Assembly (NCBI GenBank): GCA_043800255.1
Contig: JAZDNF010000006.1
Span: 3,901-67,900, forward strand
Direction: 5' to 3'
DNA length: 64,000 nucleotides
Source of the DNA: Candidatus Altiarchaeota archaeon
GTDB lineage: Archaea; Altiarchaeota; Altiarchaeia; IMC4; SCGC-AAA252-I15
Shown here piece after piece: positions 7,832 to 39,713 of this stretch. Both the position numbers and the translations under genes were made by a program. The notes under the pieces were generated by a model. That model saw nothing but the letters and a program-made list of their open reading frames with translations. It searched no databases and was not told where the DNA came from. The stretch's first letter is position 1. The number at the start of each line of letters is the position of its first letter.

Positions 7832-7871
7832 GATACCCCAACCCAAGTAGATTAAAGCTGTTACAATTATT

Positions 7872-7893
7872 CTGTCGAAAAGTATAAAAATAC
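7872..7893 (-). promoter_or_regulatory. Putative archaeal BRE/TATA box for the giant surface-protein gene.
   Basis: The minus strand reads gtaTTTTTATActtt about 45-55 nt upstream of ATG 7831, within an AT-rich intergenic spacer. Confidence 0.4.
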
Positions 7894-7923
7894 ACGTTAA
7901 GGGCGCGGCAGATGGTATGCGCG

Positions 7924-8466
7924 TCAGTCGATGACAAAAAACGGGGACTTGTATCCCCTATACTCCCTTCTCATGTACCTGTCCAAGTCGATCAGCCACT
8001 GCGCCAGCATAATCTCTGACTTATGCACGTCCTCTAACTTACCTCTCACACCGAGCTCATAATAGGATCTCTTGCCCATGTCTTTTCCCTCCCGTATGAA
8101 GAACCCCCCCTTCTGCATGTCTGGTGGGACCCCCTCCATAACCTCCTCAACCGGAACGCCCCGTATACCCTCCAAGCGGTACCTCAGCACAGCCTCGTCA
8201 CCCTCCCGCTCAAAGACCACCCGCTCGCTGCTGTTAGGGTCATTATACAAGAACCTCGGAACCCTCTTAGCAATGTAAGAGGGAATCTGATACCTGTACG
8301 GTTTACCGGGTGTGACGACTCTCGGAGGCTCATCCAGCAAGGGGGAGGGTAAAACCGGTCCCGAACCCTTGCGTATGAGGATGGTCTTGACCTCGACTAA
8401 TTTGCCGTCTAACGTCTCAACAAAGTCTCCAACATAGGGTTTCTTCGACTCCGGAGTCTTGTGCAT
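7924..8466 (-). CDS. Conserved hypothetical protein (180 aa), function unknown.
   Basis: Complete ORF in the track with no antisense competitor. Compact spacing to the downstream aEF-1beta gene. No recognisable motif. Confidence 0.5.
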   Translation of the reverse strand: MHKTPESKKPYVGDFVETLDGKLVEVKTILIRKGSGPVLPSPLLDEPPRVVTPGKPYRYQIPSYIAKRVPRFLYNDPNSSERVVFEREGDEAVLRYRLEGIRGVPVEEVMEGVPPDMQKGGFFIREGKDMGKRSYYELGVRGKLEDVHKSEIMLAQWLIDLDRYMRREYRGYKSPFFVID

Positions 8467-25863: not shown

Positions 25864-26240
25864 AAAACAGGATACTGATAATTGGGATAATAGCGCTGCT
25901 TGTCTTGTCCAGCCCAGGATGCCTCAGAAAATTGAGAGGCGGACAGAGAGCCACCACAATCGTGCCAACGACCATAGCAGAGACTCAACAGGCTGCCCCA
26001 ACAGACGAGGAAGCCTCCGAAGCAGAGCCGATAGCTGACATAACCTCTGAAGAATCCAAGCTGACGCCTCCGGACGTTGACTTAGACTTAGACCTCGAGC
26101 CAACAACGACTGTTGAAACCACCATCCCAGAGGTAATGTCAGACGAAGACCTGGCAGAACTTGATACCATCATAAACAACATCAACACCATAGAAACAGA
26201 ACTGTACGCAGGCGACCTGGACCTGGACATCAGCCTGTGA
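25860..26240 (+). CDS. Small acidic secreted lipoprotein-like protein (126 aa).
   Basis: Signal peptide MKNRILIIGIIALLVLSSPGC, then a D/E/T-rich region. 4-nt overlap with the upstream gene. Confidence 0.5.
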   Translation: MKNRILIIGIIALLVLSSPGCLRKLRGGQRATTIVPTTIAETQQAAPTDEEASEAEPIADITSEESKLTPPDVDLDLDLEPTTTVETTIPEVMSDEDLAELDTIINNINTIETELYAGDLDLDISL

Positions 26241-26351
26241 GCCCCCATTAGTTCCCTTCTTAGGGGACTAGGGCGAGCCACAGGCCGCACCAAGATAACG
26301 GGGGATTGAGAGCAAGGGAATCAGTAAGAAGTCTGGGATTGTCTCTTGCAG

Positions 26352-26374
26352 TCATTGCTCGTCTTTGTGATATA
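26352..26374. repeat. Direct repeat copy 1 (tcattgctcgtctttgtgatata).
   Basis: 22/23 identity to 27269-27291. The match extends ~12 nt further (tctcttgcag versus tctctggcag) across a 6-nt indel. Confidence 0.6.
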
Positions 26375-26432
26375 ACCTTAAAAAAGAGGATATGATAGTA
26401 TTCCTAGATCTATTTGAGGCATAGTGTTGGTT
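26352..26432 (-). pseudogene. Truncated remnant of a relE-like toxin gene 3' end.
   Basis: The minus strand encodes ...NTIISSFLRLYHKDEQ*, bounded by an upstream in-frame stop. This matches the C-terminus of the intact RelE at 27269-27517 (...KIIFLDLYHKDEQ*). The terminal 23 nt are a 22/23 match. Confidence 0.4.
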
Positions 26433-26460
26433 TTATTTTAGCATTTCGATATTTGATGTA

Positions 26461-26955
26461 ATGTCAAACGCTGGCCCCGTTATTCTGTATTTGGATAATA
26501 CCGAGCTTTACGGCTCCTTGAAGAAAGCGATAAAACACTATCTAACTGGAGGTACTGGAGGTGTACGATCTAAGTTTCTGGATTATCTAAAGAAGTTGCA
26601 GGATTCGGGGGGTGTCGTTGTATTAACTTCTGAGCTCGCTGAATTTGAAGCTATTAGACGACTGCTCACGGATTTCCCAGAATTGACGTTTAACAAGGCT
26701 CTTGAAGCTTGGATGGAGTTGAGGGGAAGGTATGATATTCGTTCAATAGATCTCCGAGACTGTAAGACAATAAATCTTGACCTTAAATTCTTCCAGAAAA
26801 CAGGATTCGACTATAAAGATGGGATGCATTATTCAGTGGCAAAAAAATATGGGGCTTTTATTGTGACTGGAGATGGGAAATTTGGAGAAACGGCAGAGCA
26901 GGTATACAAGGGTAAAGTACTAAGAAGAGGGGACGTATATCAAAAATTCAAGTAA
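26461..26955 (+). CDS. PIN-domain protein (VapC-like nuclease fold), 164 aa.
   Basis: The N-terminal Asp sits in ILYLDNTELYG. C-terminal AFIVTGDGKF resembles the PIN TxDxxF motif. AT-rich codon usage. Confidence 0.55.
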   Translation: MSNAGPVILYLDNTELYGSLKKAIKHYLTGGTGGVRSKFLDYLKKLQDSGGVVVLTSELAEFEAIRRLLTDFPELTFNKALEAWMELRGRYDIRSIDLRDCKTINLDLKFFQKTGFDYKDGMHYSVAKKYGAFIVTGDGKFGETAEQVYKGKVLRRGDVYQKFK

Positions 26956-27268
26956 TTATTTAGATTTCTTAATGATTTTAGCTAAATCTTTTGCTATGGT
27001 ATCTAGATTAACCCTGTTAGACACTCCTTTTACCTCAGTTACAGGAATCCGAAAACCATTAACTTTCAGGGTTTTTTTCACCGCATGGATTTGCATAATA
27101 GCTCACCCGTATACAATATAATAGAGGATATAGAACTTAAAAAAGGGCCATTTTTGTTTATTCTACTCAAACGTGCATTTACTTCTTAAAACAGCCTTCT
27201 AGGCAGTATACAGTTAGTTTCTGTTTTTCTGGGCAGCGTTTTTCCATGTTTTTCTCTGGCAGGATCAC

Positions 27269-27291
27269 TCATTGCTCGTCTTTGTGGTATA
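27269..27291. repeat. Direct repeat copy 2 (tcattgctcgtctttgtggtata), which is the 3' end of the relE coding sequence.
   Basis: See copy 1. The two copies flank the PIN gene 26461-26955, about 915 bp apart. Confidence 0.6.
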
Positions 27292-27517
27292 GGTCTAGGA
27301 AGATTATTTTGTCCTCTTTTTTGAGGTGCATGTATGACAGGCGGAATGGCGGGATTTTGACTTCCCTGCTGTCCTTTCGGACGTAGCGCATCGGTTTTCC
27401 GACTTCAGGATTGCTGACTATCTTCTTAATCTGCTTTTTGACTCGTTCTTTCAGGTCTCGGTTTTTGATTCTCTTTATTATGTTCTCAAAATGCGGTTCG
27501 TATGCGACAGTTACCAT
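27269..27517 (-). CDS. relE: RelE/ParE-family type II toxin.
   Basis: 82 aa. The C-terminal ...RLSYMHLKKEDKIIFLDLYHKDEQ pattern is typical of RelE/StbE toxins. 7-nt overlap with the upstream antitoxin gene. Confidence 0.7.
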   Translation of the reverse strand: MVTVAYEPHFENIIKRIKNRDLKERVKKQIKKIVSNPEVGKPMRYVRKDSREVKIPPFRLSYMHLKKEDKIIFLDLYHKDEQ

Positions 27518-27780
27518 GTCTCAAGTTCAGCCAGGAATTTGTCGCCGCTAGTCTCCTTGAACTTGCCCTTCTCGTATCTTTCCAACGCCTCCACAGTCCT
27601 TTTCGCGAACTTCAAGTCTTCCATGAAAGTCCCACCCAACTCCCGGACCGGTTTGAGTATGAACTGGCGGTCTTTTTTGATGATGACGAATTTATCGCCC
27701 ACATTGAACCCCTCCCGCATGTCCTGCGGTATCACAACCTGACCCTTGGAACTTAATTTGGTAACGTCCACATTAATCAT
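27511..27780 (-). CDS. AbrB/MazE/SpoVT-family antitoxin.
   Basis: 89 aa. ...LSSKGQVVIPQDMREGFNVGDKFVII is a swapped-hairpin AbrB/MazE motif. Immediately upstream of and overlapping relE. Confidence 0.7.
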   Translation of the reverse strand: MINVDVTKLSSKGQVVIPQDMREGFNVGDKFVIIKKDRQFILKPVRELGGTFMEDLKFAKRTVEALERYEKGKFKETSGDKFLAELETW

Positions 27781-28096
27781 CTAGATCACCATAATAAGAT
27801 TCGTCTTACCAATATATAAACCAACATTCTGGGCAAAAAACCCACCAATAGTCGCGGAAGCGGGGAGTTGCCCCTTCAGTTTTCCGTTGGAGAAGCAGAG
27901 TTTCCTGCGTCGCCCGCTCTCCCGCACATCCAAGTGTAGTGTAATACAGTAAAAACATCACAAACAACGGAAAAATAGGGGGCTGTGCGAGCAATATGGA
28001 CAGGTAAATGCATAGTTGGCCCATATTTTATTGCGGGTAAAGCCGGTAGACCAATATACCTTGGAGTGAACGTCTCCAGTGTCTGCCGGTACTGTG

Positions 28097-28960
28097 TCAC
28101 TGTTTCTGTCCTCTTTTCCTGACTATTCTTTTCAGTTTTTCTGGAATTTGAAGGTAGTTTTCAGATGTTATTACGCTTCTTCCGCTCTCGTACTCTAGTT
28201 TTTTTCTTGCGTCGCCGGCTATGGTGCCCCCTCGTCTGGCCACTGTTTTGTTTTGGATAAATCCTCTTGCATCCCTTTTACGGGCTATCTCCGTCGTTGC
28301 CGCCTCTCCGAGCATGGTGAATATCAGCTCCAGGTCGGTCATATGGTCCCGCAGGTTCTCGCGCTTTAGGCCCTTGTATTTCAGGTATTGACTGGGGGTC
28401 ATGCCGAAGGTGGCGTCCGATATCTCAGCCGTCAATATGGCGAATTCTGTGTCTTGTTTAACTCCCCTCTTGTTCCATTCTCCGGTAAGTTCGTCTCTTA
28501 CGGCGATACCTCTCACTCTTTTCTCAATCCAGTCCTCAGAGTAGCCTTTTGCTTGGTAAATCCCTCGCATCCGTCCCATAGCCAGTTCAGGATTCCCTAT
28601 CTCCTGCACTCTCTCGTAGCCGACTTTCGCAAGCCATCTCTTGAAAGGTTCTGCTTTCTTGGAGGGGATAGATTGTATTATCCTGAACATAGACTCTGTG
28701 TTGGCGCAGTCTGTTAGGTATTTTTTGCCGTCTGGTGCGGACAGTTTCAGTTGTACCCAAATTGGGGACAACTGAAGTTGTGCGAATTCCCTCTCTTTGA
28801 CCTTCCCCCAATACTGGCGGGGTGTCGGGCTGTCAGTCAAAACCTGGACGACGTCCACGACCGAGAAATACCATTCCTTATCATGCCAGACCCTACGAAT
28901 CTGTTTGCCCTGAAAAACGACCAACGAATTATCCTCATCCATACCAACCACAAACAACAA
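28097..28960 (-). CDS. Bro-N domain protein (phage antirepressor / DinD-like family).
   Basis: 287 aa. N-terminal VVFQGKQIRRVWHDKEWYFSVVDVVQVLTDS fits the Bro-N pattern. Island context. Confidence 0.65.
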   Translation of the reverse strand: MLFVVGMDEDNSLVVFQGKQIRRVWHDKEWYFSVVDVVQVLTDSPTPRQYWGKVKEREFAQLQLSPIWVQLKLSAPDGKKYLTDCANTESMFRIIQSIPSKKAEPFKRWLAKVGYERVQEIGNPELAMGRMRGIYQAKGYSEDWIEKRVRGIAVRDELTGEWNKRGVKQDTEFAILTAEISDATFGMTPSQYLKYKGLKRENLRDHMTDLELIFTMLGEAATTEIARKRDARGFIQNKTVARRGGTIAGDARKKLEYESGRSVITSENYLQIPEKLKRIVRKRGQKQ

Positions 28961-29014
28961 TACATATTAACTCTAGAAAGCCCTTAAAAACACCGCGAGC
29001 AACGGAAAAATAGA

Positions 29015-29713
29015 TCATGCTCCCACCTCTACGATTTTAGCCCCCGTAATCCTCGAAAGTTGGTTCGCAAGAGTTTTATTCTTCACGTAAATCATTGGTG
29101 GGTACAGTTCTTCTGAGGATACTCCATCTATTGAAGATGGCCTACAAACAAATAGTAATGTGTCAATGTCTGAATTTCTGAATAGAGTCTTTGAAACGAT
29201 ATCCTTGTTTGAGATAAAAGAATAAAACCTTTTTAGTGTGGCTATTATGCAATCATAAAAGATGACACCCCATAATTGGTTATCCGAATCTTTTCCCCTC
29301 CGTTTAGAGTTGATATGTTTGATGCACCTATTTATTTTAGAGAGGGCTTCTTTTTCGTTTTTTGGCAGGTTCAATGGTAACGACGAACTATGAACGTTCC
29401 TCTTAAGAGACGTATTGATTGAAGTAATCTCAACATCTACTCCTTTGTCTTTAATTTCATAATCCGGGACTTTATTAGACTTGTTCTCTTGAATCCGAGT
29501 TAAATCTCCTAATGGACTTAGTACCTTCTTAACATAGCGTTCGAGTTGCGGCGTAACCACATTTGTTCTGATAAAATCTTGATACGAGATAATACCATTG
29601 CTCGACACATTCTTACCATCCATACAGGGCCCATAGTATATTTTCATCAGGCCTTCAATATCCTGTGGAGGGTCATAACTCGCCTTATCCATGATTCTCC
29701 TCAACAATCCCAA
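29015..29713 (-). CDS. Hypothetical protein (232 aa), island-encoded.
   Basis: Complete AT-rich ORF with no motif recognised. Confidence 0.45.
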   Translation of the reverse strand: MGLLRRIMDKASYDPPQDIEGLMKIYYGPCMDGKNVSSNGIISYQDFIRTNVVTPQLERYVKKVLSPLGDLTRIQENKSNKVPDYEIKDKGVDVEITSINTSLKRNVHSSSLPLNLPKNEKEALSKINRCIKHINSKRRGKDSDNQLWGVIFYDCIIATLKRFYSFISNKDIVSKTLFRNSDIDTLLFVCRPSSIDGVSSEELYPPMIYVKNKTLANQLSRITGAKIVEVGA

Positions 29714-29771
29714 TCTCTCCGTCTAACTTCTTTTCGTACCAATCAAGAGGAAATATGTGGAACATAATGTT

Positions 29772-30659
29772 TTATGTACTATCTGTTTGTTTTTGAGAAT
29801 TGATTTCATCGATCAACATTTTTTCGAATGAGAGGTGAAACTCTAATGTTCGGGAAAATGTTTTGTCCATCCAATCTAACGTTTTTACAGAAGTATACTC
29901 ATCACCTTTTCTCAGAAAAGGTTTATTCGGAATCCTATGACACCATGTTTTTTCAGCAGGATTGCCAGTAATTGAAAATATCGTTTCTGAATGAGAATGA
30001 AAAGACATTCGTTTTCTTCCATGAGCCACATAACGTCTAAGCTCATTTAGTTTGGGTGTACTGAGTATCTCGATTATGTCACCATACTCTTTTTGCGTCC
30101 GTGAATATTTTTGTAGTTCTTTTTCATAGTCCGTGACTGGCTTCTGAGGCGTAAAAATCCAGTTATAAGATTCTACCAGAAGGTACTCTTCGAAGGAGGG
30201 AGCTATCTGCGTTGTCCCTTTGTTTTTTAGTTGCTTAAATAGATTACCAAAACCAAATTCAGGGTCGTACTTCCTGCGGAGGGTTATCCTAAATAATTTT
30301 GCTAATGAATCTAAACTGCCGCGTAGGGATAAAATAAAAGCATCAAGTTCAAACTCCAGAAGAACGTGGAACTTGGATTTCTCAGTTATTTTTTCATCTG
30401 AAGAATATGCCATGGAGTAAACTGAATGCATCTTCTGAAAAAGAAAATAGTGAAAACATGCACTTTCAAGAGAATGTGAAAGGCCAGATATTAGTTCCTC
30501 GAATAGGTGTTTATCGTCTGCAAGGATGCTCTTCTCAAGTTCTTTATCTAAATGTTTACTTCTTTCGAAAAAATCACCGAATTTTCCATTAAAAAAAGAT
30601 AAAAACTCTTTCTCAGAAAAATCAAGATTCAATCCATTATCCTGTTCCATCTTCGACAA
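29772..30659 (-). CDS. Hypothetical protein (295 aa). It lies directly downstream of, and overlaps by 23 nt, the Type IIG R-M gene.
   Basis: Complete ORF. The overlap suggests translational coupling with the upstream R-M gene. Confidence 0.45.
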   Translation of the reverse strand: MSKMEQDNGLNLDFSEKEFLSFFNGKFGDFFERSKHLDKELEKSILADDKHLFEELISGLSHSLESACFHYFLFQKMHSVYSMAYSSDEKITEKSKFHVLLEFELDAFILSLRGSLDSLAKLFRITLRRKYDPEFGFGNLFKQLKNKGTTQIAPSFEEYLLVESYNWIFTPQKPVTDYEKELQKYSRTQKEYGDIIEILSTPKLNELRRYVAHGRKRMSFHSHSETIFSITGNPAEKTWCHRIPNKPFLRKGDEYTSVKTLDWMDKTFSRTLEFHLSFEKMLIDEINSQKQTDST

Positions 30660-33606
30660 TTTTTATTTCGTCTTCCGTTAGGCCATATAGCTTATACACG
30701 AGCGAGTTTATCTCATTATCTGTGGCCTCAATCTGCCGCTCCAAAACAGACCTCTCCTGAGGAGTTTTAACACCAGCCAAATGATTATGCAAACCCAACA
30801 TACGAGAAACCAAAGAAACAACATCATCATGCTGTTTCTTCTCAAGAGGATTTGAAAAGTCTATTCGTCTTATTGAGATTTTTGATATGCTATTCCAGAA
30901 ATATTCGTATATCCCTCCACTTTTTAATTTTCCTATGCTCTTGAATCTGTATGTTAAAAGTTTTGAATTCAACAAACCTAGTAAGTATAGCAGATCTTCT
31001 GGTTGATTGTTTTCGAATAATACAGTCGTATCTGTTAAGCCTATAAATTCATTAGCATAATCTATTGCAAAACGATTATATTTTGCAAGATATGGGCACA
31101 TTATTTTTTTTCTGTCATAATGTTCTTTATGGAGGGGCCATGTATACTTCCACCATTCACAGTCCCCACGTTTGTATGCTGCTCGTGCTTTTAATTCACT
31201 TGAATTTTCAAGGAGATGTTTTTGAACAGCATTGGGAAGATTATCAAATTTAATAACATCTTCTAAATATAACAAATAGTCTCCTCGATCTTTAATGAAG
31301 AATCGTTGGATATCTGAGTTTGATGCCCGGTTATAATAGTTTCCCTTTTTTACACCCCAACTAATTATCTTATCTGACGTTATTTTTCCAAAAACATTAT
31401 TCCTACCCGTTTGCATACCTTGACCAATAATAAGGATTTGCCCTAATTTCTCTCCCTCGTTATCGATTTTCTCGTTCAATAATGCGTTGTCCTCTGAAAC
31501 GAAAGACCATGGCTCTGAAGTTAAGTTAGATTGTCCTATTCTTATCTTTTGAAAAATAGAAAAATTCTGAATTTGTCTACTTAAATTTGATGTTAGTAGT
31601 TCATCTCCTAACAATTTGTATACATCGATCTTTCCATTTTTCGAGCTTGATTGTAGGTTGATTATACAGGTTGTAATACCTACTCGGGGGAATATAGGGT
31701 AATTCTGAAAATCAATTATCTCAGAAATTCTTGAATTTTCAAGGATATAACCCCTCAATTTATCTGCTTTGTATGCTTCAAGGAATGCTCTTGAAACAAT
31801 AAAGCTGATATAATCTTGAGACAGCTGTAGTGCTTTTCCAATAAAGTAGAAAAGTATATCCGTTTTATCATTGTAGATTTCAGGATAACCCTTTTTTATG
31901 GCTTTCAATCTAGGGTCTTTTTTACCCCACGTATCATCAATGTTCAAATACGGCGGATTCCCTATCACTGCATCAAACTTGAAGGGGAATTCTTTTTTCC
32001 AGTTGAATGTGTTTATCCGGAGCGTTTCTTCTTCGGTGAATATTTTGGTCTGGCCTGTGTAGAAGTCGGGGCCGATGAGGCTGTTCCCGCATTTGATGTT
32101 ATTGTCCAGGTCGGGCAGTACGCGGCCTCCGAGGCGTTTCTGGGGTTCCCTGTGCTCGTCCTCCAAGACTTTCAAAAGTAGATTAAGCTTTGCGACCTCG
32201 ACGGCCTGCTCGTCAATATCAACACCGTATATGTTGTTCAAGAGTATCCGTTTCTTCTCGCCCAATGTCAGATACCATTGTCCGCCTTTGCCCTGATAGA
32301 CGGCATCCTTGTTTTTGCCGGGATCGTGACTTACGTACCAGTCCCTATGATAATCTAAAAGCTTCTGATACGCTCCAATCAAAAACGAACCTGAACCGCA
32401 CGCTGGGTCGAGAACTTTCAGTTTCTCAACCTGCTTGGGAGATTTGCCCTCAATAAGCCTTCCGACAGTATTTTGAACGATATAGTCTACGATGTATTTT
32501 GGCGTGTAATAGACGCCGCCGGCCTTCTTCACCTCTGGCTTTTCCTCGACTTTGGCGCGATGGCCTTCGGTAAGGCGTATTACTTTCCCTAGGAACTGCT
32601 CGTAGACGTTGCCGAGGATGTCAGCCCCGATGACTGAGAACTCATAAGGGCAATTCGGGTAATACAGGTTCTTGATCATGTCCCTGAAGACTTTATCATC
32701 AATCTTCAGGTTCGGGCAGACGTAATCCGGGAAAGACGTCCGTCCCTTTTCCTCTTTGAAATAGAATATCCCAGAATTGTATTTCTCATCAGCTTTTTCG
32801 AAAAGCCTCAGCAAATGGGTGTAAATGTCCTCCTTCTCCGATATCTCCTGAAGCTGTTCGTATGGTTCTATCCCCCGATCCTCGCATATTCTCAAGAATA
32901 TTATCCGGTCTATGGTCTTCTGGACTGCATAATTTATCTCACGAACAGAGTATTTTGGATTCCTCAATGCGATGTTCTTTGCCAGCTCATCCCTCCACCT
33001 CTCAATCTCCTTCAGGAATTCGTCATCCACCTCGGATGTGCCTTTTTTGCCCTTGACAGATTCAGCATACTGGTCGAACAAGCCGTGCTCTATCGAAGTC
33101 TTGGCGAAAATATTTGCTATCTCATCCCAACGGGTCGCATACTCGTCATAGCGTACGTACAATATCCTCCCAACACTGGCAGAGTCGTTTGGCAAGGGTT
33201 TCTTACGGCAATCATATACTGCAAACTCTTCGAAATCGGTTAGAACAGCGAGAGGCAGTTTCGCGCTCCAGGAATATCTCCGAATCTGATATGCCGGGCT
33301 GACATCGCCCTTGATGTTCACAGAAGGCTTTTTAGTCTCGAGGAAAAATTTTCGTGTCCCGCCGATACGGAAAGAATAATCCGGAGCCTTGATGTTCTGA
33401 CCTATTCTAATCGCATCCTCGTGGATCACATCCTTGTAGGCTTCAGCGATTCCCTTAACATTACGAACATCCCAACCCAATTCCTCAAAAAAGGGATTGA
33501 TGAATTCCTCCCTCAATTGAGTTTCATTATAAGCAGCGCTCAAATATGATTTCTTGTTCCACTCAAATCTCTCAACCAACTCAACAATCTTCTCCGGCGC
33601 AGCCAT
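30637..33606 (-). CDS. Type IIG restriction-modification enzyme: fused endonuclease, gamma-class N6-adenine DNA methyltransferase and target-recognition domain (Eco57I/MmeI-like).
   Basis: 989 aa. The N-terminus has a restriction-enzyme-like motif (...ETQLREEFINPFFEELGWDV...). MTase motif I is LDPACGSGSFL and motif IV is VIGNPPYLNI. A long C-terminal TRD-like region follows. Confidence 0.85.
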   Translation of the reverse strand: MAAPEKIVELVERFEWNKKSYLSAAYNETQLREEFINPFFEELGWDVRNVKGIAEAYKDVIHEDAIRIGQNIKAPDYSFRIGGTRKFFLETKKPSVNIKGDVSPAYQIRRYSWSAKLPLAVLTDFEEFAVYDCRKKPLPNDSASVGRILYVRYDEYATRWDEIANIFAKTSIEHGLFDQYAESVKGKKGTSEVDDEFLKEIERWRDELAKNIALRNPKYSVREINYAVQKTIDRIIFLRICEDRGIEPYEQLQEISEKEDIYTHLLRLFEKADEKYNSGIFYFKEEKGRTSFPDYVCPNLKIDDKVFRDMIKNLYYPNCPYEFSVIGADILGNVYEQFLGKVIRLTEGHRAKVEEKPEVKKAGGVYYTPKYIVDYIVQNTVGRLIEGKSPKQVEKLKVLDPACGSGSFLIGAYQKLLDYHRDWYVSHDPGKNKDAVYQGKGGQWYLTLGEKKRILLNNIYGVDIDEQAVEVAKLNLLLKVLEDEHREPQKRLGGRVLPDLDNNIKCGNSLIGPDFYTGQTKIFTEEETLRINTFNWKKEFPFKFDAVIGNPPYLNIDDTWGKKDPRLKAIKKGYPEIYNDKTDILFYFIGKALQLSQDYISFIVSRAFLEAYKADKLRGYILENSRISEIIDFQNYPIFPRVGITTCIINLQSSSKNGKIDVYKLLGDELLTSNLSRQIQNFSIFQKIRIGQSNLTSEPWSFVSEDNALLNEKIDNEGEKLGQILIIGQGMQTGRNNVFGKITSDKIISWGVKKGNYYNRASNSDIQRFFIKDRGDYLLYLEDVIKFDNLPNAVQKHLLENSSELKARAAYKRGDCEWWKYTWPLHKEHYDRKKIMCPYLAKYNRFAIDYANEFIGLTDTTVLFENNQPEDLLYLLGLLNSKLLTYRFKSIGKLKSGGIYEYFWNSISKISIRRIDFSNPLEKKQHDDVVSLVSRMLGLHNHLAGVKTPQERSVLERQIEATDNEINSLVYKLYGLTEDEIKIVEDGTG

Positions 33607-33681
33607 CTCTACAAGTTATTATCGAATAACAAGATTAAATCGTTAATAGTCCTGATTTTCCAATCTACTCCGTTTCCTATT

Positions 33682-34899
33682 TTATTCGTCGTCTTTGATT
33701 TTGCTGAGGGTTAAGCGTGTGGTTTCTTCGGGGGTGGCGTATTTTCTGAGGATTTCCTCCAGTTCCTGGGGGAATTCGTGCTTTTCAAGTTTTCCGGCCA
33801 GTCCCATTATGTTTAGGGTGCTTACGTCATCCCAGAAGCCGTCTTTTTTCAGTATCTCCTCTAGTTTCTGCCTTTCCTTTGTGTTCGCGGCGGGAAATTT
33901 GAGAGCCTCTTTCACTGCAACGCGCACCCGCTTATCGGAGCCGTAGATGTACTCTACCCCCTCCTTTTTAGCGTATGCTACTAAGGCTTCAGCAAGCTGA
34001 GCATACTCCTCCTCAAACCAGGCCTTGAACTCCTGCTCCCTGACCTTCAGTTCGGCGTACTTGTTGGCTAAGACGACCCCCTCCTCAGCCATGTATTTGT
34101 TTAACGGCAGCTGCCGGGTTTTAACTTGATGTTTCTTGATTTTGCAATACTCTTGGAAGGCACACCAGGCACATAGACCGGATTCTATGGCGGGGAAATT
34201 GTCGTCGGTGGTCGCCTGTTCTATGCTTTGTATGATACCTAAAAATTCTGTTTTAAGGTCTTCCAGGTGCTGGCTCGTCCGTTTGGATCTGAGTTCCTTG
34301 TCGAATACTAGGTAATGCCATACTAAGTCAACTTCCTCTACATCGTCCCACATCTGGCGAATGCCTATCTCGTAGAGGGCTAGTTGTTGATCCCTGTTCT
34401 TCTTATCCTGGGTTGGAAGATGTTGGCTTGTCTTGTAATCGTGTATTTCATAAATTCCATCACCGACAGTATCCAGGCGGTCTATGTAGCCGATAAAATT
34501 ATACTGGTTATCGCCTAGCAGGTCTACGGTAACCATCATCTCAGTTTCGAGGGTCTTCCCTTTCTCAAAGGGTTTATAGCGGTTATAGTAGTCCACCAGA
34601 CACTTTTCGCCGACAATCCGGTAATGCTCTTGTGTCAAACCCTCCTTGTTGACGACGACGTCAGGGTTTATGTATCTCACCCAGGAGTCGTTATAACCTC
34701 CTAAAAGTTCGTCAACAGAAGCGATTTTCCCGTGATTGCGATCTATATAGAACTTCTCCAAAGCCTCATGAACCCGCTTGCCCATGAAAGCCTCAATACC
34801 CTCAAAAGCCTCGACGTCCAGCTTATCGATATACTGAAACTTAAATGCCAGAGGACAATTCTCGAAACATTGTAGACGAGAATACGAGTACCTCATCAT
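33682..34899 (-). CDS. PD-(D/E)XK RecB-family / Cas4-like nuclease with a Cys cluster.
   Basis: 405 aa. The N-terminal YSYSRLQCFENCPLAFKFQYI matches the Cas4/RecB-nuclease N-terminal motif. The later CAWCAFQEYC provides three more Cys, giving a 4Cys Fe-S-like arrangement. Confidence 0.7.
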   Translation of the reverse strand: MMRYSYSRLQCFENCPLAFKFQYIDKLDVEAFEGIEAFMGKRVHEALEKFYIDRNHGKIASVDELLGGYNDSWVRYINPDVVVNKEGLTQEHYRIVGEKCLVDYYNRYKPFEKGKTLETEMMVTVDLLGDNQYNFIGYIDRLDTVGDGIYEIHDYKTSQHLPTQDKKNRDQQLALYEIGIRQMWDDVEEVDLVWHYLVFDKELRSKRTSQHLEDLKTEFLGIIQSIEQATTDDNFPAIESGLCAWCAFQEYCKIKKHQVKTRQLPLNKYMAEEGVVLANKYAELKVREQEFKAWFEEEYAQLAEALVAYAKKEGVEYIYGSDKRVRVAVKEALKFPAANTKERQKLEEILKKDGFWDDVSTLNIMGLAGKLEKHEFPQELEEILRKYATPEETTRLTLSKIKDDE

Positions 34900-34980
34900 A
34901 TAGAATAGTGGATTATTTAGTTAAAGGTGGGGGGAGCATTGGAAAAATAGTCTAACCAATACAAGCCCCTATGTTTAGAT

Positions 34981-35100
34981 TAGTTGATGCATTGTGAACA
35001 GGTGATGCATAGTGTATCAACTAAGCCCTAGTTAGGATATCAATCAGGTGATATTGGTTCCTGTCTTAGGGAGTGATAAGAATCAGCTACTTCACAGGCG
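34981..35100. repeat. ~110-bp element A. It has a perfect 8-bp inverted repeat (tagttgat...atcaacta, 27-nt loop) followed by the conserved 27-mer agtgatAagaatcagctactTcacAggc.
   Basis: Homologous with indels to element B at 37681-37790. The 27-mer is a 24/27 match. Intergenic. Confidence 0.6.
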
Positions 35101-35169
35101 CTTGGAATGGGAGAAGTGGGCTTGGGAGCGTGATGGTGTGCCTGCTCGCGTACCCGTCCAATGAATCAT

Positions 35170-36276
35170 CTATTTGTTTTCAGCTACTTTTATCCAGCGG
35201 TCCAGGTAGTCAATTTTTATGACTTGTTGAAGTTTTTTGTTTTTGACCAGCACTTGTTTTAAATCTCCGATCAGGTCTGCTTTTTTATTGTATTCCTTAA
35301 CCTCTTTTGAGCGTGCGGCAAGGTAATGGTTTATCTGGGCTTCTCTTTCGTCTTGATTATTGCAGTATCCGCAGTCGCATTTCATAAGCTCTGGTGCATT
35401 CTTTTTTATGTAGTCAAGTTCTGAGCCTGAAAACCTATTCTTCAATCCTGGGACGTAGAAGCGCGAGTATTGTCTCTGGCCGAAGCCGGGAGATGCGCGT
35501 CTTAGTCTGTCTCCTGAGTCTGCACCGTGAACAATGGCGTGTATGTTGACGTTTGGTAATAAGAGGTCGAAGAAACTGCTATATGTTGAGATTATCGGCT
35601 TACCTGTCTGGGATAACCCGTTTAGTATGTCTTTGTATCCGCTTAGGTATTCCGTTGATGCGGAGTAGACATCGAATTCTATTGCGGAAAAGCAGAAGCC
35701 GTCGGCGTCTGATTTGGCGTAGGCATTGCATATTTGGGCTGCTGCTCTTTTATTGATGAGTAAGTCTATGGTCAAAGCCAAGCCAGCATATACTTTTTTC
35801 TTAGGATATAGTTCTTTTGCGTCTTTTATGAAATTGAGGTTATGCTGTTGTGCTGGGCAGTTTTCTTCGTCTATGAATCCATAAGGTGCTATGAGAAATT
35901 CCGGGTCCACTGTTTTAGTTACCTCATCTAGGGGGTCTTCGGATAGTGCCTCGTTAATCCTGTTCTCCTGGAAGGTAAGGAATTTTCTAACAAAATCTTT
36001 TCGTCGTTTCTTATCTGATGGTATCTGCCGTATTTCATCCTCCACATCCAGCTTTGACACGTACCTAGCATGTGACCTCTTGTCCGAAACAAGATCGTAT
36101 AAGTGGGGGTCTACGACGAAAGACTTGCCGGTTTTTAGAAGAATCTGGGAGAAAGCATTGTTGTAATACTCCAGGTTTGGGCTGTCAATTACGTAGCCGT
36201 CAAAGTGATCCTTTACTTTTTCTGTGAACTTTCCTTCTTGAGCATTGTATCTGACGTAAAACTTCATTTTTGCCAC
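35170..36276 (-). CDS. TGT-fold (tRNA-guanine transglycosylase / DpdA-like) protein lacking a PUA domain, 368 aa.
   Basis: ...IVHGADSGDRLRRASPGFGQ...ELMKCDCGYCNNQDEREAQINHYL. The CxCxxC...H spacing resembles the TGT/ArcTGT/DpdA zinc site, and DS..RRG resembles the TGT catalytic segment. This is pattern-level similarity only. Confidence 0.45.
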   Translation of the reverse strand: MAKMKFYVRYNAQEGKFTEKVKDHFDGYVIDSPNLEYYNNAFSQILLKTGKSFVVDPHLYDLVSDKRSHARYVSKLDVEDEIRQIPSDKKRRKDFVRKFLTFQENRINEALSEDPLDEVTKTVDPEFLIAPYGFIDEENCPAQQHNLNFIKDAKELYPKKKVYAGLALTIDLLINKRAAAQICNAYAKSDADGFCFSAIEFDVYSASTEYLSGYKDILNGLSQTGKPIISTYSSFFDLLLPNVNIHAIVHGADSGDRLRRASPGFGQRQYSRFYVPGLKNRFSGSELDYIKKNAPELMKCDCGYCNNQDEREAQINHYLAARSKEVKEYNKKADLIGDLKQVLVKNKKLQQVIKIDYLDRWIKVAENK

Positions 36277-36640
36277 GCTTCAAGGGTGACGATAGCCTTG
36301 ACTTGCTAATTACTTTACATTCGCCTTTTTTTATACTCAATATTCCGACTCCAAGCTCCCTGAAGGTGCCTACGTCGAGTCTGGCAGCCAGATTATGGGG
36401 TATTGCAACGTAATTGTAATGGCAGTATGATGTGTTCAAAGCTGCCTGCCTAAGTGCCCTACGCCAGTCTGAGACCTTAACTTCAACGGAGGTTAAACGC
36501 CCCGTAGACTTCCGTTTGAAGACCAGATCCATGCTTTTCCGGTAGCTTTTCTCCGGATGGGTTCTGACCTCCTCAAATGGCTCAAAACCGTCATCGAATG
36601 TGTCCAGAATAGGACCATAGAGGGAAAGCTCAGAGGCCAT
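36200..36640 (-). CDS. Small PD-(D/E)XK nuclease-fold protein (Hjc-like), 146 aa.
   Basis: ...SMDLVFKRKSTGRLTSVEVKVSD... resembles the Hjc D-x(n)-E-V-K catalytic motif (VDLVA...IEVKVTK). Its 3' end overlaps the TGT-like gene by ~77 nt. Confidence 0.5.
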   Translation of the reverse strand: MASELSLYGPILDTFDDGFEPFEEVRTHPEKSYRKSMDLVFKRKSTGRLTSVEVKVSDWRRALRQAALNTSYCHYNYVAIPHNLAARLDVGTFRELGVGILSIKKGECKVISKSRLSSPLKRGKNEVLRQIQCSRRKVHRKSKGSL

Positions 36641-36673
36641 TATCTTTAATTAATTGAGCCCCTAATTATTAAT

Positions 36674-37219
36674 ATGACCGTACAGAAGAATTTGAAGCCA
36701 ATCTTACTATTGTTCCTGCTCTCGAAGCTGAGCGAAAAGGGTGAGCGTAAGGTAGATAATCTGCGTTCCATGAAGCTCCTATTTCTGATACAAAAAGAGG
36801 GTGAAAAGCAGGTAGAAAAAGGATTCAACTTCGTACCATACAAATACGGCCCATATAGTGAAGACTACTTCGATACCTCAATATACCTGTCAGAGAAAGG
36901 TTTAATCGACGTGGAGACCGATGTTTCAGGAGACATCAAAGCAGTTAAAATCAAACCCGAGGGGAGTGAAAAAGTCGCAACCCTTCAAACGGCATATTCA
37001 GACATAGCATCGAGCGTCTCAAAGATAGTATCCGAATACGCAAACCTAAGCACCGACCTTCTGCTATTGTACATCTACTCGAAATATGCGGACTTCACCA
37101 TACGTTCCGAGATAAAGGACAAGATACTATCCATAGCAAAGGCCAACTTTAGCATATTACAGTCTAAGGCAAAACAATTCAACTTTTCCGAAGGAGAACT
37201 CAATTTAGTGGGGATTTAA
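36674..37219 (+). CDS. Panacea-domain (DUF4065 / SocA-like antitoxin) protein, 181 aa.
   Basis: ...MKLLFLIQKEG...FVPYKYGPYSEDYFD... fits the Panacea pattern. Directly precedes a PIN gene. Confidence 0.5.
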   Translation: MTVQKNLKPILLLFLLSKLSEKGERKVDNLRSMKLLFLIQKEGEKQVEKGFNFVPYKYGPYSEDYFDTSIYLSEKGLIDVETDVSGDIKAVKIKPEGSEKVATLQTAYSDIASSVSKIVSEYANLSTDLLLLYIYSKYADFTIRSEIKDKILSIAKANFSILQSKAKQFNFSEGELNLVGI

Positions 37220-37654
37220 GTGCTACGCATAATCGCGGATACAAACATCATACTATCAGGGTTATTCTTCGATAAAAACCCCGAGAAACTGTTACTGCTA
37301 GCCATAAACGGCGACCTAAAACTCATAATCCCCGAACTTGTCATAACAGAGGTAAACGAAAAAATAGAGGGAAAATTCTCAAAACAAGAAAACCTGGGGG
37401 CAGCAAGGGACTTTTGGTTCGTACTCCAAAAAGCATTCCGCGAAACAAAAGAGGACATACTCTCCGATAAGACTACTCCCATAGACTGTCCTGACTCCGA
37501 TGACACTAAGATTCTGGAATATGCAACCAAGATTAAGCCAGATTACGTCATATCAGGAAACCAACACGTACTCGACATCAAAGACCCTCCCTGTCAGATA
37601 ACCAAACTAAGAGCCTTTTTAGAAAAAGAATTTCCAGGAATCCTGGAGGATTAA
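37220..37654 (+). CDS. PIN-domain protein (VapC-like), 144 aa.
   Basis: LRIIADTNIILSG contains the first Asp. ITEVNEK and DSDDTKILEYA supply further acidic residues. The C-terminal VISGNQHVLD is a degenerate TxD motif. Confidence 0.55.
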   Translation: MLRIIADTNIILSGLFFDKNPEKLLLLAINGDLKLIIPELVITEVNEKIEGKFSKQENLGAARDFWFVLQKAFRETKEDILSDKTTPIDCPDSDDTKILEYATKIKPDYVISGNQHVLDIKDPPCQITKLRAFLEKEFPGILED

Positions 37655-37680
37655 TCCTTCCAGAGACCTAAAAAAATGCA

Positions 37681-37790
37681 CGTTGATAACATGGTGTGTT
37701 AGCCAATACAAGGGGTTATCAAAATCAGCAGAGACAAAGGGAATTTGGTGTTTGAGTCAAGCAGTGATGAGAATCAGCTACTCCACGGCT
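37681..37790. repeat. ~110-bp element B. It has a perfect 8-bp inverted repeat (ttgataac...gttatcaa, 23-nt loop) followed by the 27-mer agtgatGagaatcagctactCcacGgc.
   Basis: Pairs with element A (34981-35100). Together they delimit a ~2.7-kb cassette (35.1-37.75 kb). Element B ends ~8 nt from the stop of the bactofilin gene at 37798. Confidence 0.6.
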
Positions 37791-37797
37791 ATGGTCG

Positions 37798-38484
37798 TTA
37801 CTTGAGTCTGTTGGTGAGGGTTTGTCCGGGGCCTGCTTTTCTCTGGTTTTCTCTGAATCTGATGCGGCCCTGAAGTGAGAGGATGTCCTTGTAAGCGTAG
37901 ACTTCATCTGTTGCAGAGACTATGTCGTCTTTGGCGCGGATTCCGCCGCTCTTGGAGATGATAGGCCCTCTGGCCCGCATCACGCCGGATTTGGACTCTA
38001 TGTCCCCGTTGGCTGTGATGCTCCCATCCCAGGCGATGAGACTGTCGCCTGATGTTATGGAACCTCCGGCTGCTATGTCGCCCTTGAATGAGTTTATGGC
38101 CCCGCTGTGAGAGTATATGTCTCCGCCGGCCCGTATCGGGCCATTGTCAGCGTTTATGTCCCTCTCAGCCCGTATGCTGCCGACCGCGTCTATGCCGCCG
38201 TCAGCTTCTATCCTGCTCTTCGCCCTGAAATCAGGATTCGATATTATGAGCCTGCCTCCGGTCTTCAGGCGCTCAATCTGGGAGCAGGACTCGGCCAGGA
38301 TGAAATTCTCATCCCCGCCCCTGACGGCAACCTGATTTCCCACCAGGACTGTGTAATCAATGCCTTCGAGAGTGACCTTCCCATTGGAAACAGGGCATTG
38401 CCTGCCTCCGACCGTTAACTCAGCCAGAGGTTTGATGTCCTCAAGCCCGCCCCTCTCTCCCGCACAGTAGACCTTCTGGACCAT
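37798..38484 (-). CDS. Bactofilin-like beta-helical protein (second paralog), 228 aa.
   Basis: ...GGIDAVGSIRAERDINADNGPIRAGGDIYSHSGAINSFKGDIAAGGSITSGDSLIAWDGSITANGDIESKSGVMRARGPII, a bactofilin-type winding repeat. Confidence 0.7.
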   Translation of the reverse strand: MVQKVYCAGERGGLEDIKPLAELTVGGRQCPVSNGKVTLEGIDYTVLVGNQVAVRGGDENFILAESCSQIERLKTGGRLIISNPDFRAKSRIEADGGIDAVGSIRAERDINADNGPIRAGGDIYSHSGAINSFKGDIAAGGSITSGDSLIAWDGSITANGDIESKSGVMRARGPIISKSGGIRAKDDIVSATDEVYAYKDILSLQGRIRFRENQRKAGPGQTLTNRLK

Positions 38485-38570: not shown

Positions 38571-39713
38571 ATGCTTTCTAGGGTTTTGGTTGCGGGTTTG
38601 AACTGCCGTCCTGTGGCAGTCTCAGCCAAAAAGTTCATACCAGAAGTTTATGTCGTAGACTACTTCGGCGACGTTGACCTGAAACGGGCTGCCGACGGCG
38701 TCTACTCCATAGGCAAAGAGTACTCGCTGGACAGGCTGCTCAAGCGAACGAAGAAGGTCATAGGGAGGGTGAAACCTGAGGGAGTGCTGCTGACCTCAGA
38801 ATTAGGATGCAACCCAGACACCGTCAGAGAGGTGGGATACTCCTGCAAGATAATTGGGAACGGCTTCGAGCAGGTCAACTCAGTCAGAGAGTGGAAAGGC
38901 TTCTTCCACACGCTTGACAAACTGGGCATAAAACATCCGAAGACGATTCTGGTGGACAAGATAATGAACGTCGAATGGGCGTGCAAGACTATAGGGTTCC
39001 CGCTGGTGACGAAGCCATTGCACGGCTCCTCAGGACAGGGAGTCAGGCTCATCCACTCCCTGAAGGAGGCCCTTACAGAGTTCGACAAATACAAGAGGAT
39101 ACTCATCCAAGAGTACGTCAGAGGCGTGAACGCCAGCGTCTCCGTGATTTCAACAGGAGCTGATGCGACTGCAGTCTCCTTGAACGAGCAGCTCCTAGGC
39201 AAGAATGAATTCGGACAGGAGAACCAGTTCGGATACTGCGGGAACATAGTGCCATTGGAAAGCAGACTCGAGAGGAAGGCCAGAGAAGACGCCGAGACAA
39301 TATGCAGGGAGTTCAAGCTGGTCGGGAGCGTCGGAATCGACATGGTCCTGGCAGACCAGCCGTATGTGATAGAAGTGAACCCCAGATTCCACGACACGCT
39401 CGAATGCATCGAAAGGGCATACGACATTAACCTCGTCAAAGCCCACATTGAAGCAATCGGCGGGATCCTGCCAACGGTAGGGAAATCTGGAAAAACCTAC
39501 GCGAAGAGCATACTTTTTGCGGACGGCAGGCTGAAGATAGCAGGCAACCTGGAGAACGTTGAGGGCGCGGCAGACATAATGAGAGAGGGAGCGATCGTCG
39601 AAAGAGGCAACCCGGTGTGCAGCGCCATAGCAGAGGGGAAGGACAGGGACGCAGCGCTTTCAAGCCTGAACGACAAGATAATCACATTAAAAAAATGCTT
39701 CAGAAGGATTTAA
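38571..39713 (+). CDS. ATP-grasp superfamily ligase (archaeal RimK/MfnD/MptN-like).
   Basis: 380 aa. ...PLVTKPLHGSSGQGVRL..., ...LIQEYVRG..., ...IDMVLADQPYVIEVNPRF... are ATP-grasp motifs. Confidence 0.65.
   Translation: MLSRVLVAGLNCRPVAVSAKKFIPEVYVVDYFGDVDLKRAADGVYSIGKEYSLDRLLKRTKKVIGRVKPEGVLLTSELGCNPDTVREVGYSCKIIGNGFEQVNSVREWKGFFHTLDKLGIKHPKTILVDKIMNVEWACKTIGFPLVTKPLHGSSGQGVRLIHSLKEALTEFDKYKRILIQEYVRGVNASVSVISTGADATAVSLNEQLLGKNEFGQENQFGYCGNIVPLESRLERKAREDAETICREFKLVGSVGIDMVLADQPYVIEVNPRFHDTLECIERAYDINLVKAHIEAIGGILPTVGKSGKTYAKSILFADGRLKIAGNLENVEGAADIMREGAIVERGNPVCSAIAEGKDRDAALSSLNDKIITLKKCFRRI

Follow-up and report, generated by a model that had tools for sequence, protein, structure and literature searches.

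Gene organization of the locus

The present analysis deals with a group of four genes found in a metagenome-assembled genome of Candidatus Altiarchaeota, at positions 35170-37654 of a 64,000-nucleotide stretch of contig JAZDNF010000006.1 (hereafter the window, meaning the whole stretch of DNA that was analysed). Gene D (35170..36276) and gene C (36200..36640; 146 aa) lie on the minus strand. The former encodes a zinc-binding TIM-barrel protein with the fold of the tRNA-guanine transglycosylases (TGTs), the latter a small nuclease-like protein of the PD-(D/E)XK type, and both products are annotated as hypothetical at NCBI. Gene A (36674..37219; 181 aa), whose product resembles Panacea and SocA proteins and the C-terminal domain of DarG, lies on the plus strand and is followed by a PIN_3 domain gene (37220..37654; 144 aa), equivalent to the gene called B in bacterial relatives. 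The original prediction concerned C and D only, and the two open reading frames (ORFs) are indeed present on the minus strand with the coordinates and the lengths (368 and 146 aa) that it gave. The real unit, however, is larger than the C-D pair and consists of a constant core, of which A is the third component, together with a variable fourth gene, in this clade the PIN_3 gene as the variable effector or toxin.

The length of 368 aa refers to a GTG start codon. The real start of D is the ATG at 36267, giving a protein of 365 aa, because all the homologues begin with M-x-F-Y (MKFY in the window), and this is also the start called by NCBI; residue numbers of D nevertheless follow here the 368-aa (GTG) numbering. 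Accordingly, the overlap of about 77 nt initially reported for C and D is correct for the GTG start, while with the conserved ATG it is reduced to 68 nt. Its length is not conserved either: in related loci the two genes may overlap by as much as 55 nt or be separated by as much as 16 nt, so that the overlap is to be regarded as incidental rather than as a conserved feature. A programmed frameshift joining C and D was also considered and ruled out, since the overlap varies in length and some loci have an intergenic gap instead. Between C and A, transcribed divergently, there are only 33 nt (36641..36673, TATCTTTAATTAATTGAGCCCCTAATTATTAAT), AT-rich and containing a pair of TATA-like boxes; the distance from either box to the opposing start codon is about 25 nt. 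The sequence of this region suggests a compact bidirectional archaeal promoter from which leaderless mRNAs would be transcribed.

A constant core and an interchangeable fourth gene

The gene content of the system has been surveyed in 82 distinct D loci from archaea and bacteria, where A, C and the effector genes were tallied by means of hidden Markov models (HMMs) built in this analysis. A scan of metagenomes added 76 loci and a scan of viral contigs 3; a profile scan of genome contigs for the D family gave only 2 loci, both from Acidobacteria, a search of a plasmid collection gave one record, from Haloarcula, and a tblastn search of D against a phage collection gave no match. C was found directly upstream of D in 75/75 distinct loci having enough upstream DNA for the test, a recurrence that puts the pairing far beyond chance. 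Furthermore, two natural C-D fusions exist, P0018 (557 aa) and P0021 (560 aa), in which a C domain (residues 1 to ~126; E ~1e-31 with the C-family HMM) is placed at the N-terminus of a TGT-fold D domain. By this genomic evidence C and D, always adjacent and twice fused, are a functional pair, and the pairing first proposed from the window alone is thus borne out in other genomes.

The idea that the pair would be a minimal module did not survive the same survey, as A accompanies D in all the testable distinct loci (64/64), usually together with a PIN, membrane or SIR2 effector. The order of the genes changes from one lineage to another. In the five Altiarchaeota-type loci PIN_3 and A are on one strand and C and D, divergently transcribed, on the other, within flanks that differ, while in distant bacterial relatives the genes form a co-directional operon, A-B-C-D. 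In a variant layout D shares its strand with a SIR2-like gene, while C and A are convergent to them on the opposite strand (L029, L036, L041, L093, L094 and L095); the last three, which carry the SIR2 variant, are IMG/VR contigs classified as viral. L041 adjoins a BrxL-type gene. Across these different orders and flanks the association of A with C-D is kept even at 20-25% identity; the possibility that A-PIN is an unrelated neighbour was considered and set aside on account of the presence of A in 64/64 loci.

The product of A in the window matches the PADLOC models PDC-M19A (1.6e-17) and DarG (2.8e-7) as well as NCBIfam antitoxin_DarG (2e-5), and has a homologue encoded by the gene that opens the bacterial A-B-C-D operons (blastp 1e-7 to 1e-8). 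The homologue in Haloarcula is annotated by PGAP as a SocA-domain antitoxin, and the matches of A members to Pfam SocA_Panacea (PF13274), although below the cut-off, span the full length of the domain. Membrane toxins as well as RNases are known to be neutralised by Panacea antitoxins, which bind them directly (PMC8832971). An unusual protein, P0111 (443 aa), has about 60 N-terminal residues resembling the start of A (GITRLQKMLYLLEK...FKPY), followed by the IDPxTY motif of D; it is possibly a deletion-fusion, or else a chimera of assembly or gene calling, and was left aside.

The fourth gene belongs to one of three kinds. In the window it encodes a PIN_3 protein (PF13470, 1.3e-12; 48.9 bits vs. 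a cut-off of 27), and a PIN gene comes directly after A in 5/5 distinct Altiarchaeota-type loci, the window included. In 33 loci it is a membrane protein of ~170-200 aa with three hydrophobic segments (3-TM), encoded between A and C, and in 20 loci a SIR2-like protein encoded right after D, which reached or exceeded the cut-off of Pfam SIR2_2/SIR2 in 3/5 cases tested. As for the remainder of the tally, 4 loci are cut off by the end of the contig, and in 2 no effector was detected. In the SIR2-type locus L055 a further ORF of 181 aa (7415-7957, plus strand), with no Pfam match, overlaps the end of the SIR2-like gene and could represent an accessory component of some loci of this type.

Gene D: a divergent branch of the TGT superfamily

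D has no match in the Pfam (E<=1), NCBIfam or PADLOC models. Of its relatives, 67 were aligned: none matches Pfam at E<=0.01, and NCBIfam arcsn_tRNA_tgt recognises 3/67, weakly (best 1e-3, far below the cut-off) and on the zinc motif. Close relatives number only four among 5.8 billion clusters, whereas a profile search over 1.84 billion representatives (50% identity) retrieved 637 relatives at E<=1e-3, about 400 aa long, from both archaea and bacteria. Among the 61 relatives listed none has been given a name that indicates function, nor does any carry a Pfam domain in precomputed annotation. A BFVD fold search gave no significant viral match.

The nature of D emerges from its predicted structure. 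The AlphaFold2 model, calculated from the 67-sequence alignment (pLDDT 94.9, pTM 0.93), shows a barrel of eight strands and, C-terminal to it, a helical subdomain, with the (beta/alpha)8 fold typical of the TGTs. It contains a zinc subdomain and lacks a PUA domain, in agreement with the architecture originally predicted for this protein. The zinc knuckle, C300-x-C302-x2-C305...H317, is encoded at 35326..35379 (minus strand; CDCGYCNNQDEREAQINH), and its four residues, also correctly recognised at the outset, are conserved across the 67 diverse members: C300, C302 and C305 each in 64/67, H317 in 65/67. In PDB searches with profiles of the D family only marginal matches were obtained, among them one of this segment with the zinc site of the archaeosine TGT 1iq8 (E=0.03). 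In the DS..RRG segment, a second supposed TGT signature, the actual residues are ADSGDRLRRAS, which do not make a TGT motif in the literal sense.

Alignment of the D family with E. coli Tgt by hhalign covered 12 columns only, those of the zinc motif (probability 0.3%), and for this reason residue equivalences with the TGTs could not be set by sequence. The order of the strands in the model offers some candidates. D56, which belongs to the IDPxTY motif and closes barrel strand 3 on the C-terminal side (36109..36111, minus strand; Asp in 64/67 members, followed by P57, Pro in 66/67), is a candidate general acid/base, possibly equivalent to D102 of TGT (Zm) and D95 of DpdA. D256, in the VHGxDxGD motif of the loop after strand 8 (35509..35511, minus strand), is a candidate nucleophile in a position that may correspond to D280 of TGT (Zm) and D256 of DpdA; the position is Asp or Glu in 56/67 members and lies six residues beyond the end of strand 8. 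By contrast, no Asp is found at the end of strand 4, where the sequence P131-Y132-(F) is present (Pro in 67/67, Tyr in 65/67 members). Judging from strand order, the guanine-binding Asp (Zm D156, DpdA D130) appears to have been replaced by an invariant Pro-Tyr, while TGT and DpdA have each of the three aspartates without exception (PMC10164549).

Other residues of D are also highly conserved: Q103 in 60/67 members, R272 in 51/67, Y274 in 66/67, E325 in 62/67 and W361 in 67/67. An acidic residue occurs at position 202 or 203 (E at 203 in 55/67; D202 in the clade of the window). Compared with the TGTs, D has a long helical insertion (residues ~64-110) and pocket motifs of its own, namely IDPxTY, PPYF, NLYGGYFS and RYYxP. 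D is, in conclusion, a member of the TGT superfamily by fold, with the zinc site kept, and represents a distinct and highly divergent family; from the model, its base pocket is probably different from that of the enzymes acting on guanine or 7-deazaguanine.

Gene C: a small protein of the PD-(D/E)XK superfamily

C belongs to a family of stand-alone domains of 131-172 aa. The motif D-x13-E-V-K originally reported for it does exist, with a spacing of 14 residues instead of 13 (D38-x14-E53-V-K55). The putative catalytic set is formed by E4 (36629-31), D38 (36527-9), E53 (36482-4), K55 (36476-8) and Q65 (36446-8), all encoded on the minus strand. In 75 distinct homologues E53, K55, Q65 and G99 never vary, and E4 and D38 are kept in at least 90%.

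The protein of the window taken alone matches no family in Pfam, NCBIfam or PADLOC. When the 75 members were scanned against Pfam, the weak matches obtained were almost exclusively with PD-(D/E)XK families: MTES_1575 REase (8 members, best 4e-6), YhcG_C (7) and HSDR_N_2 (5), and in addition DUF234, PDDEXK_9, HSDR_N, Hjc, MmcB-like, NERD, Mrr_cat_2 and NucS_C. The profile of the C family gave a marginal match with NucS (2vld; E=0.28), in whose nuclease domain the E, D, ExK and Q residues find aligned positions, and the predicted order of secondary structures is compatible with an alpha-beta-beta-beta-alpha-beta core. The Hjc model (PF01870) gave no match with C of the window and recognised only 3/75 relatives (best 0.0082). 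C is thus a protein of the PD-(D/E)XK type, as had been proposed, while the likeness to Hjc does not go beyond the level of the superfamily; from its sequence, C is a generic PD-(D/E)XK member and not specifically an Hjc.

Genomic context and mobile elements

The genes that recur at the flanks of the system encode components of type IIG and type I restriction-modification (RM) systems, BrxL, ResIII, integrases and recombinases. After clustering of 388 flanking ORFs, the SIR2-like and type IIG RM families were the only recurrent ones. Near the 82 loci neither DpdB nor QueC/D/E nor a canonical TGT was recurrent by PADLOC, ORF clustering and Pfam census; in particular, of the 154 families in the Pfam census of 129 neighbours, the 25 that occur most often include neither QueC nor QueD, and PADLOC detected no Dpd component among the neighbours in the window and no components of the cyclic oligonucleotide-based antiphage signalling system (CBASS).

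The system is found on plasmids and integrative elements. Plasmid pNG400 of Haloarcula marismortui ATCC 43049 (NC_006392.1; L096) carries at 5078-7314 of the record an A-C-D locus (RR_RS00620, RR_RS00615 and RR_RS00610) without a recognisable PIN, TM or SIR2 partner. It is flanked upstream by genes for an HNH endonuclease and ParA, downstream by a short radical-SAM fragment and insertion sequence (IS) elements.

In the window, the genes are part of an island with a low GC content (0.35-0.47 vs. ~0.52 elsewhere), located at about 26000-38000. Directly downstream of D there is a gene for a PDDEXK_1/Cas4-like nuclease of 405 aa with a long C-terminal helical extension (33682-34899, minus strand), and further downstream one for a type IIG RM enzyme of 989 aa (30637-33606, minus strand; PADLOC REase_MTase_IIG, 6e-211; Pfam Eco57I, MmeI_Mtase and TaqI_C). 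Type IIG enzymes flank the system in 8 other loci. The island also contains a PIN-like gene (26461-26955), a RelE-like/AbrB-like pair recognised from the sequences alone (27269-27517 and 27511-27780, both on the minus strand), a gene for a Bro-N protein (28097-28960) and two ORFs of no assigned family (29015-30659). At the margin of the island, just past the PIN gene, a 228-aa repetitive protein rich in Gly, Asp and Ile, with no Pfam match, is encoded at 37798-38484 (minus strand), followed by the gene of an ATP-grasp enzyme (38571-39713). No tRNA genes were found in the whole window.

Relationship to known systems

To our knowledge, the only other TGT-fold components of defence systems are those of Dpd and Cap10 of type IV CBASS. 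DpdA (PDB 7UI4), which inserts preQ0 into DNA in bacteria, has no detectable sequence homology with D and requires the ATPase DpdB (PMC10164549). Besides DpdB, neither DpdC, DpdD-K nor the linked genes for preQ0 synthesis (QueC/D/E, FolE) were found near D, whose partners are, instead, a PD-(D/E)XK protein of ~140 aa, a Panacea-like protein and a PIN, TM or SIR2 protein. Since the sequence models fail, one of the three catalytic residues, the strand-4 Asp, probably fails as well, and the partners typical of Dpd or CBASS were not found, D has not been filed as a DpdA. Cap10 (PDB 9NTN) is a TGT-like protein acting on a protein-linked 7-deazaguanine; it has lost the zinc site, keeping the three TGT aspartates, and works with a QueC-like protein, Cap9, and a CD-NTase (bioRxiv 10.1101/2025.04.06.647259). 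D shows the opposite arrangement, in that the zinc site is kept and the strand-4 Asp seems lost, and it is accompanied by neither a QueC-like gene nor a CD-NTase. In the TGTs the zinc subdomain stabilises the binding of nucleic acid, and it is this subdomain that is lost in the protein-acting Cap10 (bioRxiv 10.1101/2025.04.06.647259). As to TGT and ArcTGT proper (PF01702, TIGR00430/00432, TIGR00449), their models do not recognise D, which differs in the helical insertion, in other pocket residues and in the lack of a PUA domain; moreover, they are housekeeping genes, while D occurs in mobile and defence contexts.

A resembles the antitoxins of the PanAT pairs (Panacea/DUF4065; PMC8832971) and the C-terminal domain of DarG, and the PIN RNase or membrane protein that follows A belongs to toxin classes validated for PanA. 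Unlike the two-gene PanAT pairs, A is strictly linked to C-D, and about one third of the loci also have a SIR2-like gene, which makes a system of three to five genes. C, in turn, shares with NucS, Hjc, MTES_1575 REase and YhcG the E...D...ExK...Q motif and a matching order of secondary structures; nevertheless, the C of the window passes no family threshold, and nothing in it is specific to the resolution of Holliday junctions. The nearest relatives are TGT and DpdA as far as the fold is concerned, and the PanAT pairs and defence systems with swappable effectors as far as the logic of the system is concerned. PADLOC-DB v2.0.0 (2023) contains no model for B, C or D, and literature searches (DUF4065 with transglycosylase or SIR2, PDC-M19, TGT-like defence) did not find this combination described, although a recent name elsewhere is possible. 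Within the databases and papers that were searched the system thus has no counterpart, and it is built around a new branch of the TGT superfamily.

Proposed function and alternative explanations

The region 35170-37654 may well be the Altiarchaeota version of a conserved defence or toxin-antitoxin-like system, a reading held with moderate confidence, in which C and D would form a complex on nucleic acid and A would gate an effector attached interchangeably to the A-C-D core. The reasons for thinking of abortive-infection defence or of a toxin-antitoxin are that a constant core is combined with interchangeable PIN, membrane or NADase modules, on mobile elements and beside RM genes. In this scheme, C and D would act as one complex. 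The zinc subdomain of D and its barrel pocket (D56, Y132, D202, D256 and Y274) would bind a nucleotide, the base of which would be flipped out and then excised or exchanged via a ribosyl-enzyme intermediate, and C, through E4, D38, E53, K55 and Q65, would cut nearby. A would bind the effector and keep it silent, like the Panacea antitoxins do with their toxins. Once C-D engaged invading or abnormal nucleic acid, the effector would be released, be it the PIN RNase co-transcribed with A in the window or the membrane protein or SIR2 NADase elsewhere, leading to growth arrest or to an aborted infection.

A more specific version of this scheme, tentative and in itself rather doubtful, sees in D an immune sensor-enzyme at the origin of a new TGT branch which, fused or bound to C, would flip and excise or exchange a base in invading nucleic acid and relay the signal via A to PIN, pore or NADase effectors. 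The base sensed may be a hypermodified one, for instance the 7-deazaguanines by which phages evade restriction.

Several points weigh against the proposal of a defence or toxin-antitoxin-like system. The active-site equivalences of D come from strand order and topology, and the AlphaFold2 model of C, obtained from a two-sequence alignment, is of low quality (pLDDT 48.5) and did not match any nuclease fold. The Pfam SocA_Panacea values of three A members (0.16 for the window, 0.0064 and 0.039) are all below the cut-off of 25.7 bits. The defence genes in the neighbourhood are given as raw occurrences, and some loci lie amid housekeeping genes (L007). Finally, 2 complete loci, that of Haloarcula included, have no recognisable effector, and in such loci C-D itself may be the toxic part.

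This last point leads to the first alternative, which we consider unlikely, that of a plain Panacea-type toxin-antitoxin or addiction module without any sensing of invaders. A would be the antitoxin and C-D a two-part toxin, such as a TGT-like enzyme damaging tRNA or DNA together with a nuclease, with PIN, TM and SIR2 proteins as extra or alternative toxins. In favour of such a module are the likeness of A to Panacea and SocA proteins and its first place in the operon as in the PanAT pairs, the two complete loci (pNG400 among them) made of A-C-D with no other effector, the occurrence on plasmids and integrative elements, and the fact that dozens of unrelated toxins, RNases and membrane toxins among them, are partners of PanA antitoxins (PMC8832971). 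On the other hand, where a system can exchange its killing modules, what stays constant is usually the sensor, and what stays constant here is C-D. A single antitoxin acting on three or four unrelated proteins at once would also be unusual, and the A-PIN pair of the window already resembles a complete toxin-antitoxin pair, which leaves C-D unexplained.

The second alternative, quite improbable in the light of the data above, corresponds to the original prediction of a minimal 7-deazaguanine module: D would be a DpdA-like DNA-guanine transglycosylase inserting a 7-deazaguanine, drawn from preQ0 of the archaeosine pathway, into host DNA, and C the cognate endonuclease for unmodified or modified DNA, the two forming a compact RM pair. 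The conserved zinc site, the Asp at the strand-3 position and the acidic residue after strand 8, the nuclease partner always adjacent or fused, and the frequency of RM genes among the neighbours would all suit this explanation. Against it stand the absence, in the 67 members, of any TGT or DpdA HMM match beyond the zinc motif, the invariant Pro-Tyr at what seems to be the strand-4 position of the guanine-binding Asp (D156/D130), and the lack, near the 82 loci, of recurring genes for QueC/D/E, for a canonical TGT or for DpdB, needed by DpdA (PMC10164549). C, moreover, has no specificity domain, and the constant Panacea-like A and the SIR2, TM and PIN effectors are left unexplained; the constant presence of A, usually with a swappable effector, points to the logic of abortive infection or of toxin-antitoxins rather than to that of RM. 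A chance juxtaposition of a PanA-PIN toxin-antitoxin pair and an independent C-D pair in a defence island, to which the divergent transcription of the two pairs and the crowding of toxin-antitoxin genes in the island of the window might lead, is very hard to believe given that A accompanies C-D in all the testable loci of archaea and bacteria, that the association survives at 20-25% identity and through changes of gene order and flanks, and that the bacterial A, B, C and D genes are joined in a single co-directional operon.

Significance

The known substrates on which TGT-fold enzymes rewrite bases are tRNA, DNA (Dpd and phage DpdA) and, as recently found, a protein (Cap10). The present family is large (637 representatives at 50% identity), goes undetected by the models of Pfam, NCBIfam and PADLOC-DB v2.0.0 (2023), and keeps a zinc subdomain of the nucleic-acid type in combination with a probably different pocket. 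If functional, the system would introduce a new principle of enzymatic sensing or marking in prokaryotic immunity and would link the Panacea "antitoxins" to multi-gene defence. The copy carried by pNG400 in a cultured organism, Haloarcula marismortui, makes the question accessible to direct experiment. Should D prove to be a sensor-enzyme, the system would represent a mechanistically new class of anti-virus defence common to archaea and bacteria.

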